From the NCBI GenBank assembly GCA_037071015.1, contig JBAMOY010000001.1:831478-863477 (forward strand): 32,000 nucleotides of DNA. The letters are read 5' to 3'. The notes under the pieces are model-generated. The model searched no databases and was not told the origin of the DNA. It saw only the letters and a program-made list of their open reading frames with translations. Origin of the DNA: Bacilli bacterium (GTDB lineage: Bacteria; Bacillota_I; Bacilli_A; RF39; UBA660). Shown piece after piece: positions 5,859 to 15,440 of the stretch (position 1 is the first letter of the stretch; every line of letters starts with the position of its first letter). A program made the position numbers and the translations under genes.

Positions 5859-7379
5859 TTACTTTTTAAAAGAAGTATTAACTGTTTGATAGTATAATTT
5901 TTCAAGTTGTTCATCTGATATTTGAATAACCTTACCACCGTTAGGATTTATTTCTTTTCCACCAAAAACAACCCATATTGCATCTAAACGTTTAGAAGGC
6001 ATATCCGCATAACCATCAGTAAAAATTATTTTATTTTCAACCCGTCTTGTAAAAGCATTAACTGCTGTTTCAAAATCAGTTCCACCACCACCAACAAATG
6101 GCATATTATCAATATCATTTACATTTTTGATTTCATTAAAACCATAAAATTTTGTATCAAAACAACCAGCTTTTACCTTAGAATTTTGCAAAATATTTTT
6201 ACATTCTCTTAAAAAATTTCGTAATAATGATTCATCGATTGAACCACTAGTATCTAATAAAATTTCCGTTTCGGGTTTTGGAAGTTCCTCTAAATAAGGA
6301 GTAATCACCCCATCTTCAATTGAGGCATTTCGATAAGACCAATCAACATCATATTTAATAGCTTCTTTTAATAAGCGACGCCAATCAATTAAAGGGTCAG
6401 CAGTACCAATATCATTCATATTTCTAATTTCAGAATTGGTATCTTTACCTGCGCCAATTGATTGTTTAGCTAACGATGAACGTAACTCATCTAACTGTTT
6501 TTTTCTGTCAATTTTATTTTGTTCAAAAATTCGTTTTTCACCAATCTGCGACAATCTATTTATCTGTTGACGAACTTTTTCGATATCTTTCTTTTCTTTT
6601 TCATCTAAAGAATCTGGTTTTGAATGACTCTTTTGTTCAGATTCTCTATGATCATTCGAGCTGTCTCTTTGAGAATCTTCATTTTGTTTTTTAGTTTCCT
6701 CTTGTTTTCTTTTTGCCACTGCTTTCTGCCACATATCATGTGTATCGTGACCCACATCCTTTGTTTGTTCTGAAGAACTTTTTTCTTCTGAATTACTTCT
6801 CTGTTGTTCACTTTCAGAACCACTGTTTTGATTATGATTACCAGATGAGCTCTGATCTTTTTGATCATTTTCCTGACCTTGTGAATTAGAATCTCTATTT
6901 TGGACATTAGATGAATCACTCTGAGATTCCGTATTTTGATTACCATTTTCTGATGATTTTTGGGCATTTTGTTTTTGCTCCAACAACTTTTGATAAAAGG
7001 CTTCGGCATCATAATTAAATGCTTCTGGCATATTAACACCATCTTTGACTATTTGTAATCCATCATGCTCTAAATAAGCATTGATAACGGCGTCAGTGGC
7101 AGTATTCCAAAGATCTGGATCTTTACCTTCGCTTCTGAAAATATGATCAAAAGCCACATGACAAACTTCATGAGCAAAAATAAACACTTGTTCATTTTTT
7201 GTTAAACTATTTATAAAATCCGGATGATAATAAATCGTATTGCCATCTGTTCCCGCAGTCGGTTGTCCATTACTATAACAATCTCTAGATTCAACATAAT
7301 TTAAATTAGCTATAATACTCCCAAAAAAAGGATATTTAACTAACATTCTTTTTTTTATAGAATCAATATTAAAACTCAT
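5859..7379 (-). CDS. Putative zinc metallopeptidase (HExxH) fused to a VWA-like domain (DUF2201-type architecture) through a long low-complexity linker
   Basis: HEVCH at 7158..7172 in an N-terminal peptidase-like domain. The C-terminal ILLDTSGSI...GGGGTDF resembles a VWA MIDAS-type region. I prefer the start at ATG 7379 (MSFNIDS) behind an AGGGGTG RBS. This architecture is typically partnered with MoxR-type ATPases. Confidence 0.75.
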   Translation of the reverse strand: MSFNIDSIKKRMLVKYPFFGSIIANLNYVESRDCYSNGQPTAGTDGNTIYYHPDFINSLTKNEQVFIFAHEVCHVAFDHIFRSEGKDPDLWNTATDAVINAYLEHDGLQIVKDGVNMPEAFNYDAEAFYQKLLEQKQNAQKSSENGNQNTESQSDSSNVQNRDSNSQGQENDQKDQSSSGNHNQNSGSESEQQRSNSEEKSSSEQTKDVGHDTHDMWQKAVAKRKQEETKKQNEDSQRDSSNDHRESEQKSHSKPDSLDEKEKKDIEKVRQQINRLSQIGEKRIFEQNKIDRKKQLDELRSSLAKQSIGAGKDTNSEIRNMNDIGTADPLIDWRRLLKEAIKYDVDWSYRNASIEDGVITPYLEELPKPETEILLDTSGSIDESLLRNFLRECKNILQNSKVKAGCFDTKFYGFNEIKNVNDIDNMPFVGGGGTDFETAVNAFTRRVENKIIFTDGYADMPSKRLDAIWVVFGGKEINPNGGKVIQISDEQLEKLYYQTVNTSFKK

Positions 7380-7390
7380 ATTTAGCACCC

Positions 7391-7792
7391 CTAAATATGA
7401 ATTAACAACGAATAAACATCTTCACTAATTGGATGATTATTTAAATTATTTGCTGTTACGATAATTAAACATTGCTCTGGCAATTCAAATGTACTTATCT
7501 TACGATATTTTAATATCTCAATAAATTTATTTTGTTCTGCCATCGGTATCATATTAATATTTTTAATCACAATAATAGGCCGCTCTTTTTTTACTCTATC
7601 AAGTAAATCTTGATACCAATCAGGTGCAACAAATGAAGTTCCCTCATAATGCCCATTCAAAAGCGATATGTCACAATCAGCATTAATAATAATATCATTA
7701 ACAAATACATCATCTGAAACATCTTCTAAAAGAAGTGGCGACATATTAGCTTTGATATAGGTTTCTAACAAATTTATTCTATCTTGTTTCAT
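7391..7792 (-). CDS. Degenerate AAA-like protein, a paralog of the Walker B to sensor-1 segment of the upstream ATPase with no Walker A
   Basis: PIIVIKNINMIPMAEQNKFIEILKYRKISTFELPEQCLIIVTANNLN aligns by eye with IHIVFFDEITNALPSIQGMAFNIVLDGEVNGIWKLPENARIVAAGNDLN of the 540-aa ORF. The Walker B DE is replaced by KN. An ATGA start/stop overlap with the upstream ORF indicates translational coupling. Confidence 0.5.
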   Translation of the reverse strand: MKQDRINLLETYIKANMSPLLLEDVSDDVFVNDIIINADCDISLLNGHYEGTSFVAPDWYQDLLDRVKKERPIIVIKNINMIPMAEQNKFIEILKYRKISTFELPEQCLIIVTANNLNNHPISEDVYSLLIHI

Positions 7793-9411
7793 CGTCTTAT
7801 CCCTCCTTCTGATAAAGATGCTGTTCGTAATTCTGCTATATACTCTAATCGTGATTCATCACCATGAATCCAGAGGTTATCAAACGTGGCACATATTTCC
7901 GCACCTAATCTTTTAACAAAATTTCTAACAGTTTCTAAATTTTCTTCATCAACAGAAGAAAGACCCACTGCTGTTGCAAATTTTTCAGCAACATTCATTT
8001 CCAAGTCATTATCATTGTAATTACCATTTATCACATCATCAACACTGATAACTTGTTGACGACAAAAAGCCGTAAAATCACTAGTTAAGTCTTCACCAAC
8101 CAAAGCTCTAAGCATTTCTGGTTGTTTGGTCTTATACAATATTTTAGATGCCATTTCCCATTTACGAGGATCAGCATTAGGTTTTTCACCATTATAAGCA
8201 GTTCTTAAGACATCCTCGCCCTTATAAGACTTATAAGCTATATATGCATAAATAGCCGGATGAATTTTAGCTTGGATATCTTCTTCTTCATAATCTAATC
8301 TTTCATATGCTTCTTTAGGCATTGACGCCCATTTTAACCACGAATCAACAGTAGTATTAATATAGACATGTGCAAAACGATTAAATAATGGTTCAGCCAT
8401 AGTATTAGCTGCCAAACTATCATTTAAATCATTACCAGCAGCTACAATACGAGCATTTTCTGGTAGTTTCCATATTCCGTTTACTTCACCATCCAAGACA
8501 ATATTAAAAGCCATACCTTGTATGGAAGGAAGCGCATTAGTAATTTCATCAAAGAAAACAATGTGAATTTTATCTGGTTCTGCCTCACATTTTTGCTTTA
8601 ATTTTTTTAACCAAGTTGGAGGAACATCTATCATTTCACCAGTTTCTGAATTGTATACACTTTTACCATTCAAACTTTCTGGTGTAGCATTCCTTAAATA
8701 AATTATTTCACAATCCGGATCCAACTGTTTTACCCGGGCACTTTTACCTTCACTAGATCTACCATGTAAAAATACAGCTACATTCCCCTTAATAGCCCCT
8801 TTAATTATATCTTCTTCACTAACCCGATCAAAATTAAAACCATATGGATTTCTTTTTCTTGTTACTGCATGTTTATCTATTATATTATTTTGCGAATCTA
8901 AATTTTGAACCAAATCTCTAATTTGCAGTAGATCATGAGATAAATGTTGATCCAAAAATTTTTTTATATCCGTATTAAGCCAATTAGCCGTTTTATAATC
9001 CCTTGTTCTATTGAACTGAACCCCAGAAAAAATTAATTTTTCTGAAACGGCTATTCCTTCTTGTTCATCAACTAACCATTTTACTGGTTCAACTGCAACC
9101 CAAACAAAATCACCGTTACGATAATTTTTCCCATTAGATAACGTAAACTCTCTAGAACCATAATCAGAATTAGCTTTAACCCTAATATATCGTTTACCAT
9201 TATATTCATATTCATCATGAACCAACGCTTGAAACGGTTGATCATAAGCATCATATGGTCGCGAATCCGTTGTATATGTATTCCCAGTCCTAATGAGTCC
9301 TCCAAAATTAAAAGCCCGTTCCAATTGAACTTGCAAATCAACACTAGCAACAGTCTGCGGATAATACCCATATTCAATTTCTAGAATTCCATCATTTGCT
9401 CTTCTACTCAC
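7789..9411 (-). CDS. MoxR-like (AAA_5-type) AAA+ ATPase with an N-terminal DUF6273-like beta-rich domain; this is the downstream part of the interrupted DGR target
   Basis: Walker A GRSSEGKS (8740..8763), Walker B IVFFDE (8545..8562), sensor-1 RIVAAGND. The N-terminal region has EPVKWLVDEQEG...NWLNTDIKKFL. The track start is a GTG with no Shine-Dalgarno, and the frame stays open upstream to 9483, so it is probably not an independent start. Confidence 0.8.
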   Translation of the reverse strand: MSRRANDGILEIEYGYYPQTVASVDLQVQLERAFNFGGLIRTGNTYTTDSRPYDAYDQPFQALVHDEYEYNGKRYIRVKANSDYGSREFTLSNGKNYRNGDFVWVAVEPVKWLVDEQEGIAVSEKLIFSGVQFNRTRDYKTANWLNTDIKKFLDQHLSHDLLQIRDLVQNLDSQNNIIDKHAVTRKRNPYGFNFDRVSEEDIIKGAIKGNVAVFLHGRSSEGKSARVKQLDPDCEIIYLRNATPESLNGKSVYNSETGEMIDVPPTWLKKLKQKCEAEPDKIHIVFFDEITNALPSIQGMAFNIVLDGEVNGIWKLPENARIVAAGNDLNDSLAANTMAEPLFNRFAHVYINTTVDSWLKWASMPKEAYERLDYEEEDIQAKIHPAIYAYIAYKSYKGEDVLRTAYNGEKPNADPRKWEMASKILYKTKQPEMLRALVGEDLTSDFTAFCRQQVISVDDVINGNYNDNDLEMNVAEKFATAVGLSSVDEENLETVRNFVKRLGAEICATFDNLWIHGDESRLEYIAELRTASLSEGGIRR

Positions 9412-9425
9412 TACGTTCGTAGAGA
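9408..9425 (-). promoter_or_regulatory. Candidate hairpin/cruciform downstream of the VR (possible DGR target-recognition element)
   Basis: Minus strand UCUCUAC-GAAC-GUAGUGA is a 7-bp stem with one mismatch and a 4-nt loop, about 28 nt 3' of the VR end. The VR 3' end (GGTTGTGGTCGTCCAG) is locally GC-rich. Confidence 0.35.
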
Positions 9426-9452
9426 TACTAAAGATGGATGAGTACGGTAAAG

Positions 9453-9524
9453 CTGGACGACCACAACCATTGCGTTTTGGACATTATTGTTGTTTCTATT
9501 TCCATTATTCTAGACGACGCGGGC
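9453..9524 (-). repeat. DGR variable repeat (VR) copy inside the target gene, currently identical to the TR at all adenines
   Basis: The 72 nt match 11050..11122 (73 nt) exactly except for one base in a homopolymer. The target frame is AAY-rich: AAT AAT GGA AAT AGA AAC AAC AAT AAT. Confidence 0.85.
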
Positions 9525-9731
9525 GTCATTATCGTTATCATCAGTTTTAGTCCAATAATAACCGGTACGGTCTTTTAAAGAACTACTTCCGTCTAGATAA
9601 TAATCTCCAACATATCCTCCTAACAATATTGAAAAATCAGTTAATGCTGCTTTAGTACCACGCTTTTTTATAATACTTAAAGCATTATTGCCAAATAACT
9701 GTTCTTCTGTTAAAAAAGTAAAGTTATTCAT
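9510..9731 (-). CDS. N-terminal fragment of the DGR target (ligand-binding module up to the VR), ended by the TR-derived TAG
   Basis: Good AAGGTGA RBS. FLTEEQL...KAALTDFSILLGG...GYYWTKT...ARVV resembles the WWLRS...V...G...VRPA-type lectin-like modules. The ORF ends at TAG 9510..9512, inside the repeat shared with the TR. Confidence 0.75.
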   Translation of the reverse strand: MNNFTFLTEEQLFGNNALSIIKKRGTKAALTDFSILLGGYVGDYYLDGSSSLKDRTGYYWTKTDDNDNDARVV

Positions 9732-9811
9732 AAGTAATCACCTTTAATATAATATCATATTTTTTTTAACTTTTAAATACATAAACATTTTGTTAATATT
9801 ATAAAACCCTA

Positions 9812-10828
9812 TTACGGTTTAACCTTTTCCTTTAAAATTTGGTTCTCATCGGTATTTTTAATTCGATTATAAAAAGCGTTTTTACGTTCATAAACATAAA
9901 TATCATCAACTAACCCTTTAGTTTTTAAATGATTTAAATTTTTAATATGTTTTTTCATTCTAATTTTTGATGATGAACGTAATTTAGTAATTATTTTACC
10001 TTCAGTAGTTAAAATGTGACGATAACCTAAAAAATCTATTCCATTTTTAACCATCCCAATTTGTGTTTTTTGATTTAATAATAGATGAAGATCATCATGA
10101 CAAATACGTCTAATTTCATACAAACATTTTTTTAAATACTCTTTATCATGATGAATCAAAATCATATCATCCATATATCGAATATAACTTTTAACTTTTA
10201 AAACCTCTTTAATATAACGATCAACACTATTCAAATATAAAAGCGCAAACCATTGACTGGATTGATTACCAAGTGGAAGTCCTTTATCAACTTTATTCGG
10301 TTGTTCTAAAATAACCTTTTTCATAAACCACATTTCATCATTTGAAAAATTAAGCTGTTTTAAAAGATTGATTAAAACTTGATGATTAATACTATCAAAA
10401 TATTTAGTCACATCGCATTTTAAAAAATAAATATTATTATTGCCACAAGAACGATATTCACGTTGTAAAAACATTCGAAGACGTTTAATAGCGAAGCTTG
10501 AACCCTTATTTTTACGACAAGCAGCATTATCATATATTAACTTATTTTCAACTCTAGGACGTAAAATATGATTACAAAAACATTTAATTACAACGCGATC
10601 TTTAAATGGTAATGCTTCAATTACTCTCTTTTTAGGTTCAAATATTAAAAATTGACGATAAGACCCTAAACAATACTTTTTTGAACATAAAGATTTTCTT
10701 AATTTGGAAATATTTAATGATAAATTAGTTTCAAATCTTATAACTTCCCCTTTATGTTGTTTAGCTTTGCGACAATCTCTATAAGCATCATACAGGTTCT
10801 CAAAAGTAAAAATATCCTCTAATAACAT
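9812..10828 (-). CDS. DGR-type reverse transcriptase
   Basis: RT motifs CDVTKYFDSINH, LGNQSSQ (10253..10273; this is the [I/L]GxxxSQ signature seen in DGR RTs, where group II and retron RTs have QGxxxSP), YMDD (10166..10177) and IDFLGYR. I prefer ATG 10828 (MLLEDIF) behind a GAGGGTGAG RBS over the TTG at 10846. Confidence 0.9.
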   Translation of the reverse strand: MLLEDIFTFENLYDAYRDCRKAKQHKGEVIRFETNLSLNISKLRKSLCSKKYCLGSYRQFLIFEPKKRVIEALPFKDRVVIKCFCNHILRPRVENKLIYDNAACRKNKGSSFAIKRLRMFLQREYRSCGNNNIYFLKCDVTKYFDSINHQVLINLLKQLNFSNDEMWFMKKVILEQPNKVDKGLPLGNQSSQWFALLYLNSVDRYIKEVLKVKSYIRYMDDMILIHHDKEYLKKCLYEIRRICHDDLHLLLNQKTQIGMVKNGIDFLGYRHILTTEGKIITKLRSSSKIRMKKHIKNLNHLKTKGLVDDIYVYERKNAFYNRIKNTDENQILKEKVKP

Positions 10829-10846
10829 AAACTCACCCTCTAACAA

Positions 10847-11122
10847 AAAACACCCCTAATAACGCCCAAAAAATAGTTTCCTATTCGTTGCTTGTGTAGG
10901 TGTTTATGTTCTTCCACCGCACTAATTAACTCTTAGCGGTTAGAAAAGAGAAAAGTTCCTTCACTCTATAGTACTGATATATTCATCTTAGAATATATTT
11001 CTCTGACCTGTTTTCTAGATTCACATAGCAAATCTCTTCAAAAGTGAATCTGGACGACCACAACCATTGCGTTTTTGGACATTATTGTTGTTTCTATTTC
11101 CATTATTCTAGACGACGCGGGC
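10847..11122 (-). ncRNA. DGR template RNA: TR plus the spacer leading into the RT gene
   Basis: A non-coding 276-nt stretch between avd and the RT holds the TR, followed by a stem-loop-rich spacer (for example CCGCUAA...UUAGUGCGG). In characterised DGRs the TR-spacer RNA is both template and primer for the RT. Confidence 0.65.
11050..11122 (-). repeat. DGR template repeat (TR)
   Basis: The 73-nt copy of the VR lies in non-coding DNA between avd and the RT. It has 26 adenines on the coding strand, 8 AAY codons in the target frame, and one TAG. Confidence 0.85.
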
Positions 11123-11191
11123 CCAAAAGGCCAAGACTTGAAGACACGCCACAGAAAATTTAACTTTTCCCTTAATTAAAAGTTTTTCAAC

Positions 11192-11785
11192 TTAAAATCC
11201 TTTTTTAGTATTTTTCCATCTTTCATCATCACTTTTTTTCCATGCTACAATCAAATTGATAGCTTCTGCTAATTGCAAAGAAATTTGTTTATATTGCTTC
11301 TTTAATATGCAACCACTATTTTCGGCCAACATAGCGACATAACCAAGAAGCTTCAATTTCACAATTGCTTCTTTTTGTAAATTTTCCCGTTTCGTTTTAT
11401 TTTCTAAACAATCCATTCGAATATAATTTGCTTTAAGAAGATCTTCTAAAGCATCTAGACAAAAGTTTTGCATTCTATTGACAAAGACTCCACGAAATCT
11501 TTTTGGTGATTTTTCTGTTACAGCAATGACATAAGCTCCCAATTTCTTTACAACAGTAATAACTACTAAATCATTTGCATTAAAAGGAATTCTAAATATT
11601 TTATCTAATTCTACATTATCCTTTTCTACTTCTTGCTTAATCTTGTCTTTTTTAAATACCTCATGTTTAGTAATAGCATCCGCTTCCTTAATGGCTACTA
11701 TATCAGAAACAGTATTAATTTGTTCAGCTTTACATACAATTTTTTTAGGTATTTTCAAATTATTATCCCTACTCACTTGTAACAT
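11192..11785 (-). CDS. avd: Avd-like accessory variability determinant (four-helix-bundle / 23S rRNA IVS-protein family) with an N-terminal extension of about 60 aa
   Basis: The C-terminal ~130 aa has KSPKRFRGVFVNRMQNFCLDALEDLLKAN ... ISLQLAEAINLIVAWKKS, which fits the typical Avd pattern, and it lies immediately upstream of the TR. The start codon is uncertain. Confidence 0.7.
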   Translation of the reverse strand: MLQVSRDNNLKIPKKIVCKAEQINTVSDIVAIKEADAITKHEVFKKDKIKQEVEKDNVELDKIFRIPFNANDLVVITVVKKLGAYVIAVTEKSPKRFRGVFVNRMQNFCLDALEDLLKANYIRMDCLENKTKRENLQKEAIVKLKLLGYVAMLAENSGCILKKQYKQISLQLAEAINLIVAWKKSDDERWKNTKKGF

Positions 11786-15181: not shown

Positions 15182-15440
15182 CCTTTAAATAAAAAAAACG
15201 TCCTATATAAGGACGTGATTAACGTGGTACCACCTTAGTTTATGCATAAAAATGCACCTCAAATATTTAACGCATACATACGTAATATCTTACTAATTTC
15301 GGATATTAAACTCCCTTGCTACCTTCAATAATTCATATTATTAGTTCGCATCAACCACTAACTTTCTTAAAATATAAAATTATTTACTCCTCAAGTTCTA
15401 AGTTTTTAAATATTATAACCCATTTTATTTCTTTTGACAA
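15182..15440 (-). promoter_or_regulatory. T-box riboswitch leader with a sigma-A-type promoter, controlling the HD-domain gene and valS
   Basis: Promoter TTGTCA (15435..15440), 17-nt spacer, TATAAT (15412..15417). Conserved T-box sequence AAGGUGGUACCACG (15223..15236) overlaps the terminator CACGUCC-UUAUAUA-GGACGU plus U8 (15190..15217). Confidence 0.85.

Follow-up and report, generated by a model that had tools for sequence, protein, structure and literature searches.

Evidence for a recently active diversity-generating retroelement with a stop codon in its template in an uncultured gut Bacilli bacterium

The 32,000 nucleotides of contig JBAMOY010000001.1 analyzed here (positions 831,478 to 863,477, hereafter the window; G+C content 29.4%) come from an uncultured gut Bacilli bacterium and very probably (at about 0.85) harbor a complete, recently active diversity-generating retroelement (DGR), located on the chromosome and built around an accessory gene (avd), a template repeat (TR) and a reverse transcriptase (RT). 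To our knowledge, DGRs are the only prokaryotic system of targeted protein hypermutation, and the functions of the proteins diversified by cellular DGRs are largely unknown. A complete DGR, with avd, TR, spacer RNA, RT and variable repeat (VR), had been proposed in an initial annotation of the window, and is now supported by the closest sequence match of the RT, by a covarying spacer and by adenine-specific differences between alleles. A plain complete DGR would be routine. What makes this one moderately interesting is the architecture of its target, its wide conservation and, above all, the presence of stop codons in the templates together with frequent null alleles.

The retroelement and its adenine-specific variation

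All parts of the DGR are on the minus strand: avd comes first, then the TR, a structured spacer RNA of 203 nt, the RT and the target. The main features are as follows:

11192..11785, minus strand: Avd-like accessory gene, 197 aa (hidden Markov model (HMM) matches, predicted structure)
11050..11122, minus strand: TR, 73 nt, with 26 adenines (repeat comparison)
10847..11049, minus strand: spacer RNA from TR to RT, seven helices (covariation in 16 species)
9812..10846, minus strand: DGR reverse transcriptase (motifs, PDB sequence match)
9510..9731, minus strand: 5' part of the target gene, 73 codons, ended by the TAG of the VR (open reading frame (ORF) and homologues)
9453..9524, minus strand: VR, 72 nt, an unmutated copy of the TR minus one A (repeat comparison)
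9510..9512, minus strand: in-frame TAG, derived from the TR, codon 5 of the repeat (intact same-species alleles have TCG, TGG or TTG)
9476..9479, minus strand: run of four A (five in the TR), a -1 frameshift (comparison with same-species contigs)
9403..9423, minus strand: hairpin TCTAC-gaacgtagtga-GTAGA, a candidate target-recognition structure (covariation between species)

The direct repeat described in the initial annotation is real. On the minus strand it comprises 11122..11050 (73 nt; the TR, GCCCGCGTCGTCTAGAATAATGGAAATAGAAACAACAATAATGTCCAAAAACGCAATGGTTGTGGTCGTCCAG) and 9524..9453 (72 nt; the VR), which match at 72/73 positions and differ only in that the run CCAAAAACG of the TR is CCAAAACG in the VR (A5 to A4). 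Past the end of the repeat there is weak similarity for another six bases, ATTCAC on the TR side and CTTTAC on the VR side. With up to three mismatches allowed, a 16-mer from the 3' end of the repeat has exactly two sites in the window (none being expected from 100 shuffles), and this search revealed no second VR there. As had been described, the copy at 11050..11122 is non-coding and lies just upstream of the RT gene, 70 nt past the Avd-like ORF and 203 nt ahead of the RT ORF, which is followed after a gap of 80 nt by the 73-codon ORF. The other copy was said to lie in a coding frame; this frame, however, is not intact, being interrupted by the TAG at 9510..9512 and shifted by -1 at the missing A. 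The richness in AAY codons was borne out (8/24 codons in the VR as assembled and 9/24 in the TR), as was the lesser frequency of an order in which the target follows the RT (6 of 43 related phage DGRs). The stop and frameshift of the VR, the stop in the TR, the reach of the target gene to 7789 and the nature of the target, an AAA+ protein with the VR near its N-terminus, had been overlooked.

The 540-aa product of the window belongs to a cluster of 12 proteins at 90% identity, and same-species contigs were fetched for most members of this cluster. In all, 11 other same-species alleles were sampled, 9 of which were read as DNA. The TR was identical in all same-species contigs from which the TR region was recovered (11 exact matches and 4 more). 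The nine alleles differ from it as follows, A-to-N being a replaced adenine and TAG the stop codon of the TR:

L079: 7 A-to-N, TAG kept, no other difference
L080, L084: 7 A-to-N, TAG kept, no other difference
L081, L083: 12 A-to-N, TAG kept, no other difference
L082: 7 A-to-N, TAG kept, no other difference
L085-L094: 9 A-to-N, TAG to TCG, no other difference
L097: 13 A-to-N, TAG to TGG, no other difference
L095, L096: 16 A-to-N, TAG to TTG, one G>T
L001, L002: 13 A-to-N, TAG kept, C>A, 2-nt deletion at the A run
L098: 7 A-to-N (from the alignment), TAG kept, +1 insertion beside adenines

Taken together, the seven alleles that are as long as the TR (73 nt) contain 71 A-to-N changes against a single other change over 329 non-A positions. 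The initial annotation had called for an alignment of TR and VR in related genomes and had asked whether differences would also fall outside the TR adenines; with 71 changes against 1, this question is answered in favor of a DGR. In 20 other species with the same cassette there were 246 A-to-N changes and 68 substitutions at other bases, nearly all of the latter in alignments that overrun the repeat or in the decayed locus L055. The adenines of the TR are distributed over codon positions 1, 2 and 3 as 10, 11 and 5. In L002, L080 and L081 (SPEN21 METAG scaffolds), valS, avd or RT is split into several ORFs, and some of the frameshifts there may be assembly errors; the allele counts rest mainly on the other contigs. 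Differences in length between TR and VR (-2 in L001, +1 in L098, -1 in L038 and -1 at 9476-9479 of the window) are all found at or beside adenines, suggesting that the RT skips or adds bases at adenines besides substituting them.

The RT ORF encodes 344 aa when read from a TTG, while gene callers in other strains use the ATG at 10828 (338 aa). It has the LGNQSSQ and YMDD motifs reported previously, and its assignment to the DGR type is backed by its best PDB sequence match, 8ub7 (328 aa; 141.7 bits, E 3e-40, RT residues 8-303), which we take to be the RT of the Bordetella phage (bRT) and whose sequence carries IGSLTSQ and YMDD. The next-best matches, to group II, retron and Cas-associated RTs, do not exceed 48 bits (47.7; E 1e-11 or weaker). 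In L080 the RT is split into 56 and 186 aa, and in L095 avd is called at 143 aa.

Could the locus be a plain segmental duplication that happens to lie beside a retron, a group II intron or a defense RT? Within the window alone, adenine-specific divergence is indeed absent, and in NCBIfam, which has no DGR RT model, the RT gives only sub-threshold matches to group II and Drt RTs. However, the RT is closest by far to a DGR RT and has the [I/L]GxxxSQ motif. At gathering thresholds, Rfam finds only a T-box leader in the window, and no retron, group II intron or DGR RNA. An Avd-like gene and a covarying spacer are present, and adenine-specific variation is seen in the 11 same-species alleles and in 20 other species. 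The RT match and the adenine-specific variation refute this explanation, which is left with a negligible probability.

The Avd-like gene lies ahead of the TR, and its position and conservation are consistent with Avd. Its product matches the DGR Avd model of NCBIfam, NF033474, with an E-value of 4e-7 over model positions 3-103 of 104. The AlphaFold2 (AF2) model has four long helices (aa 68-195) and an N-terminal extension of about 65 aa, and its top Foldseek matches are 2gsc and 2rld, of the 23S rRNA intervening sequence (IVS) family (TM 0.84), and 4dwl, the Bordetella Avd (TM 0.75). The identical protein at NCBI is named "four helix bundle protein", and PDB sequence searches with the protein and its profile returned nothing useful. 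Two Avd HMMs match one and the same region from end to end, with scores that fall short of the cut-offs.

The spacer between TR and RT is kept in 16 species, where its structure has 46 pairs, 25 of them with compensatory change, and 96.4% of cells are paired (alignment A3). No column shuffle was as good (0/500), and when the 3' partner was shifted by 1-3 columns as a control, pairing was only 37-56%. In the first helices the 3' end of the TR together with ATTCACTTT pairs with AAAGTGAAGG about 85 nt downstream, and four species show covariation in these helices (ATTTGC with GCAAA). A nearly invariant, single-stranded AGAAAAC separates helix 3 from helix 4; as a guess by analogy with Bordetella, it might hold the priming adenosine. 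The G/C-rich end shared by the repeats, GGTTGTGGTCGTCCAG, is followed in all species by CTTTAC in the VR and by ATTCAC in the TR, a candidate for the directional boundary of IMH (VR) against IMH* (TR). A hairpin (9423..9403; 5-bp stem, 11-nt loop) lies inside the coding sequence 29 nt 3' of the VR, and its stem covaries between species as TCCTC/GAGGA, TCCCC/GGGGA, TCCCT/AGGGA and CCAC/GTGG. By analogy with PMC3240598, it is a candidate target-recognition structure. The hairpin occurs at the same position in L003-L078, both with and without an adjacent RT, suggesting that the targets at RT-less loci were once, or are still, served by a DGR, possibly one encoded elsewhere.

How would the element work? 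If the Bordetella paradigm applies, the region from avd through TR and spacer to RT would be transcribed, and RT and Avd would bind the structured spacer. The RT would then prime on RNA and copy the 73-nt TR into cDNA with misincorporation at adenines, and this cDNA would replace the VR in the target. The direction of homing would be set by the differing 3' junction, perhaps with the help of the hairpin.

Several points weigh against a complete and active DGR. There are no A-to-N differences between the TR and VR of the window, and activity is evident only through other strains. The Avd-like protein scores 30 bits against NF033474, for which the cut-off is 80; its match to Pfam bAvd (E 2.6e-4, residues 75-185) is below the cut-off as well, and the Foldseek E-values for its model are weak. 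Many related loci have no RT within 6 kb, and the target as assembled is not translatable. Among the features of the DGR family that were tested, all fit except for the usual C-terminal position of the VR, with the Avd scores below the curated cut-offs.

Stop codons in the template and the state of the variable repeat

In the frame of the target, the TR reads ARVV*NNGNRNNNNVQKRNGCGRP, with an in-frame TAG at the asterisk. At this TAG, the three alleles of the species that are intact read TCG (Ser), TGG (Trp) and TTG (Leu), which are the products expected from mutating its adenine. Such stops are common in the family: by manual count, 12 of 17 distinct TRs have an in-frame TAA, TAG or TGA at a diversified codon, preferably the first or second variable codon after VV or the codon at which other species have TGG (Trp). 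The VR still has a stop in five of the 12 species with a stop-bearing TR (that of the window, L003, L008, L015 and L019), and a further species, L038, has an adenine deletion in its VR. Species whose TR is stop-free have no interruption located in the VR. As a control, 80 phage DGR loci found through their RT (30-45% identity) were taken through the same automatic pipeline for TR, VR and frame as the family. None of the 43 distinct phage TRs has a stop inside its mutagenised part (one has a stop at the extreme end of the alignment, beyond the conserved G.xP motif that closes the VR), compared with 7 of 11 TRs of the family; by Fisher's test, the difference has a p of 1e-5 in the pipeline and 5e-8 with the manual count.

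AAY codons can never yield stops (bioRxiv 10.1101/2024.11.15.621889), and DGR candidates with premature stops have been removed from a curated set (PMC5758913). Stops encoded in the TR contradict the emphasis of the literature on stop-proof, AAY-rich templates, and loci that bear them would be discarded as non-functional in curated surveys (PMC5758913). No prior description of TR-encoded stops, of DGRs in RF39-type Bacilli or of DUF2201 with MoxR was found in the literature, the coverage of which was incomplete.

What do the stops do to the target? With a TAG and an A5 run in the TR, homing leaves the protein intact only when the adenine of the TAG is changed and none is skipped. The empirical rate of change is 0.39 per adenine (each adenine being unchanged in about 61% of alleles), and about 35% of homing events on the window's TR are expected to be stop-free, before counting indels. 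Intact alleles make up 3 of the 11 sampled in the window's species, and most of those sampled are nonsense or frameshift alleles. On the other side of the stop, in the 3' coding region, the ratio of nonsynonymous to synonymous polymorphism (pN/pS) is about 0.2 between strains, and there are no lesions outside the VR between the strains compared; the target gene is therefore kept by selection.

It might be argued that the DGR is decaying in this species, with a nonsense mutation in its TR, a pseudogene for a target and variation that is only a neutral remnant. As decay would have it, 7 of the 10 alleles for which DNA was read still have the TAG and 3 of the 10 have indels; the fraction of intact alleles (3/11, these ten and P0127) is near the 0.35 that would be stop-free without selection; and the split RT of L080, the shortened avd call of L095 and the several related species that retain only RT remnants point the same way. 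On the other hand, every strain has the same TR, both RT and avd are undamaged in the window as in most strains, and the sequence 3' of the stop combines a pN/pS of about 0.2 with freedom from lesions outside the VR. Moreover, the presence of stops in 12/17 TRs makes them a long-lived trait of the family rather than a one-off lesion. Decay appears distinctly unlikely.

A different function for the stops can be put forward tentatively, with the odds against it: in this lineage, the DGR might be both a diversifier and a reversible on/off switch, operating through the nonsense codons (TAA, TAG or TGA) at mutable adenines and the indel-prone A runs that the TRs of most species contain. It would then be a matter of chance whether a given retrohoming event produced a null allele or a sensor variant that is new and functional. 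(Only via nonsense codons in the template would Trp and other aromatic residues be reachable.) If the DGR does act as a switch, the population would hold a large, re-activatable pool of off alleles of a cytoplasmic ATPase-VWA-protease sensor, through which the cost of a receptor generated at random, or its self-reactivity, could be limited. Template stops would thereby link hypermutation with phase variation in a testable way.

The VR in the window is itself an off allele, which has the unmutated sequence of the TR, including the TAG, and a frameshift of -1; it represents a true null allele or else the consensus of a mixed population. This state is the reason why the annotation splits the target into a 73-aa ORF and a 540-aa "ATP-binding protein". 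The probability that one mutagenic event would leave all 26 adenines unchanged is 2.6e-6, and over 5.6 kb the window shows no indel other than the missing A when compared with same-species contigs.

One explanation is that the identity of VR and TR, and perhaps the missing A too, is artefactual, produced by assembly or consensus calling from a mixed VR population in a 1.2-Mb contig of a metagenome-assembled genome (MAG). With about 61% of alleles unchanged at any one adenine, a consensus taken by majority would show almost all adenines unmutated, and hence the TR with its TAG. The improbability of 0/26 changed adenines (2.6e-6) also speaks for an artefact, as does the lack of unmutated alleles (0/9) among the other same-species alleles read as DNA, and the length of the contig (1,203,482 bp) suggests a long-read or consensus-polished assembly. 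Set against this, a single indel in 5.6 kb does not indicate an assembly that is generally prone to indels. Low-coverage short-read contigs contain genuine nonsense and indel alleles, some of which recur in independent samples (L001/L002, L080/L084, L081/L083). An artefact is quite possible, at a little under even odds. Alternatively, the VR could have been reset by a non-mutagenic transfer from the TR, through faithful reverse transcription or gene conversion at the DNA level, with one adenine skipped. The allele is exactly the TR apart from the deletion in the A run, where the indels of other alleles sit as well (-2 in L001, +1 in L098 and -1 in L038 of another species). However, no other unmutated alleles were seen, 12-16 nt of flanking identity is short for recombination, and faithful copying of 25 adenines would be very unlikely at the observed error rate, and a reset of this kind is considered unlikely.

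The target protein and its partner genes

The remaining features belong to the target gene and its neighbors:

7789..9452, minus strand: remainder of the target gene (as assembled, an ORF only at 9411..7789)
7391..7792, minus strand: 133-aa gene overlapping the stop codon of the target (conserved beside the target at nearly all related loci)
5859..7388, minus strand: gene for a DUF2201_N putative zinc metallopeptidase with a DUF2201 VWA-like domain (Pfam, synteny)

When the TR is swapped into the VR, the 73-codon and 540-codon ORFs are joined in one frame of 647 codons, interrupted only by the TAG. The 73-codon ORF has a good ribosome-binding site, AAGGTGA, 7 nt before the ATG at 9731. Separate translation of the 540-aa ORF appears unlikely from the sequence, since no Shine-Dalgarno-like sequence precedes its GTG at 9411, in contrast to the ATG at 9731. 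(Reassignment of TAG can be dismissed, as 6/24 ORFs in the window end in TAG.) The reconstructed target has more than 3500 homologues, most of them about 645 aa long, at 100% query coverage and 62-71% identity. Their alignment is strongly conserved except for about 20 hypervariable residues between DARVV and G-x-RPALPYSS, which are the VR.

The VR occupies codons 70-93 of 647 and forms the end of a module of about 100 aa near the N-terminus of the protein. This is not the usual place, which is the C-terminal end of the target, on a C-type lectin fold (Roux et al. 2021, PMC8144416); rare cases of internal or N-terminal VRs are on record (PMC5758913). The AF2 model of the homologue P0005 (mean pLDDT 84.7) begins with an N-terminal module of about 100 residues that has the VR in its last strands; after this come a beta-rich domain (107-270), a linker that is disordered, the AAA+ domain (about 300-470) and a helical C-terminal domain. 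Foldseek matched this model to NorQ, to MCM subunits and to the MoxR protein 2r44 at E-values of about 1e-7; it reported only the AAA+ domain of the full-length target, and nothing for the VR module. The Walker A (GRSSEGKS) and Walker B (IVFFDE) motifs are invariant or nearly so, Pfam gives only weak AAA_5 matches to the ATPase, and neither a signal peptide nor a membrane segment is visible in the sequence.

What, then, is the variable module? In the homologue P0002, which has two such modules, the second copy exceeds the DUF6273 threshold, and the phage DGRs closest by RT have targets that match DUF6273 at E-values of 1e-31 to 1e-41, with the VR at the end of the domain. A comparison by hhalign of the VR module with the phage DUF6273 VR segment gave a probability of 88.7% (E 2.6e-6) and paired WWLRTP..AR.V...G....GVRPA of the phages with YWTKTD..ARVV...G....G.RPAL of the target. 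A PDB sequence search with a profile of the N-terminal module returned nothing useful. On these sequence comparisons, the VR module is homologous to the variable end of the DUF6273 domains of phage targets. Residues 1-100 of the target resemble the C-terminal half of DUF6273, and residues 107-270 (with motifs like VEPVKWLVDE and TDIKKFLDQHL) resemble its N-terminal half in the phage targets. Judging from this order, target residues 1-270 (9731-8920 of the window, minus strand) may be a circularly permuted DUF6273.

Downstream, the product of the gene at 5859..7388 matches DUF2201_N (E 1.2e-33) and the DUF2201 VWA-like domain (E 8.6e-12) in Pfam, and is presumed to be the VWA partner of the target ATPase. 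Between its two domains there is a long, acidic, low-complexity linker rich in Ser, Asn, Gln, Glu and Lys (6400-6950 of the window, minus strand). The protein measures 506, 509 or 552 aa in same-species strains, as the linker varies in length, and the alignment of the window with sister contigs breaks around 6792-6920.

The VR-bearing module of the target is fused to a NorQ/MoxR-like AAA+ ATPase, and the target would be co-transcribed with the 133-aa and metallopeptidase-VWA genes. By domain logic, the variable module would sense an intracellular ligand, possibly proteins of invaders, and occupancy by the ligand would pass via the ATPase to the VWA-metallopeptidase partner. This functional picture has its own difficulties. 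It is drawn, by analogy, from domain content and from the predictions made for other MoxR-vWA systems (PMC7159879, PMC10907252). No defense-system model of PADLOC matches the trio, and neither NCBIfam nor PADLOC offers a model by which the target, the 133-aa protein or the VWA protein could be named. The VR module in the window gives only sub-threshold Pfam matches, to Fib_succ_major and DUF6273, and its C-type lectin fold is putative.

Distribution and relation to known systems

A scan with one genome per species gave 76 loci, nearly all of them in MAGs, which are labeled Bacilli, Tenericutes, Coprobacillus sp. CAG:605, Clostridium sp. CAG:417 or Candidatus Faecisoma and come from human, rabbit, mouse, chicken and ruminant gut. 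Essentially all loci that are long enough have the trio of target, 133-aa and metallopeptidase-VWA genes, which is found in more than 70 species of gut Bacilli. The avd-TR-RT cassette lies directly upstream of the trio in about two dozen loci. RT fragments are present in L023, L046, L049 and L057, and many loci have the target in tandem copies. There are signs that the cassette has been repeatedly lost, or is decaying, while the trio stays intact. The locus defines a large conserved family, in which the diversified module is carried by a MoxR-type ATPase that would work with a VWA-metallopeptidase. In some species there are two VR-type modules per protein (P0002, 909 aa) or two to four tandem target genes (L012, L014, L017, L053, L055, L067, L069, L070 and L075-L077), which points to a sensor repertoire that grows by duplication as well as by hypermutation.

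The core of the element, avd-TR-RT, is that of the DGR of Bordetella phage BPP-1 (avd-TR-brt with the target mtd; architecture B1, Wu et al. 2018, PMC5758913). The two share an RT alignable over almost its whole length, with IGxxxSQ and YMDD motifs, a four-helix Avd (here a predicted, Avd-like one), a structured spacer after the TR, TR-to-VR changes that are specific to adenines, a repeat with a G/C-rich 3' end that leads into a junction specific to TR or VR, and a hairpin 3' of the VR (here a candidate recognition structure). Unlike in BPP-1, however, the target is downstream of the RT, and the VR lies near the N-terminus of a cytoplasmic ATPase rather than at the C-terminus of a tail-fiber lectin. 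The Avd here has about 65 extra N-terminal residues, the TR has an in-frame stop, and the element is chromosomal, located between valS and pilin/Wzy genes. The closest viral RTs found (41-43% identity) are those of L099-L105, which belong to a group of phage DGRs with DUF6273 targets (IMG/VR L099-L105, L147 and L168). These DGRs also have the order TR-RT-target, as well as a VR at the end of DUF6273 and internal to the protein, with the pattern WWLRTP..AR.V...G....GVRPAL. Their targets, on the other hand, look structural, with Ig-like repeats after the VR and without an ATPase or VWA partner, and their TRs are stop-free in the mutagenised part.

In the wiring of the target, the nearest parallel is with the MoxR-vWA "VMAP ternary" systems of cyanobacteria and gammaproteobacteria, which are likewise diversified by DGRs (Kaur et al. 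2020, PMC7159879; Dore et al. 2024, PMC10907252). In both cases a ligand-binding module varied by a DGR is part of a MoxR-type AAA+/vWA/protease operon that is predicted to be cytoplasmic, and the locus has the corresponding features, a MoxR-clade AAA+ ATPase and, two genes downstream, a vWA partner that is syntenic in more than 70 loci. However, the variable FGS/C-lectin domain of the ternary systems is C-terminal and usually fused to the vWA protein, whereas the variable module here is N-terminal and on the ATPase. The ternary systems have a VMAP component and multicellular hosts rather than small-genome gut Bacilli, and the protease here is a DUF2201_N zincin fused to the VWA domain. Neither the 133-aa protein nor any other gene gave a VMAP-like family match in Pfam, NCBIfam or PADLOC. 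The locus would work like the DGR-diversified MoxR-vWA sensors, yet is outside that family as defined: a VMAP was not found, the ATPase carries the variable module, and both the hosts and the protease-VWA fusion differ. The "DGR-diversified antigen sensor" proposed for multicellular cyanobacteria and proteobacteria would thereby also cover gut commensals with small genomes, in which the wiring is different.

A similar comparison can be made with MoxR-VWA chaperone pairs such as NorQ-NorD. In structure, the AAA+ domain is best matched by NorQ hexamers in complex with the VWA domain of NorD, and a VWA protein is encoded two genes downstream of the ATPase. In contrast to NorQ-NorD, no nitric-oxide reductase or metalloenzyme maturation gene is linked here, and the target ATPase has about 300 extra N-terminal residues, including the hypervariable module.

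The genes that flank the DGR are ordinary chromosomal ones, with valS and its T-box leader upstream and pilin-like, Wzy-like and lepA genes downstream. No tRNA was found in a tRNA scan of the window, and a promoter and terminator scan was at the level of shuffled sequence and uninformative. The T-box leader is at 15206-15409 on the minus strand (128.8 bits, the gathering score being 93), ahead of an operon with an HD-domain gene and valS.

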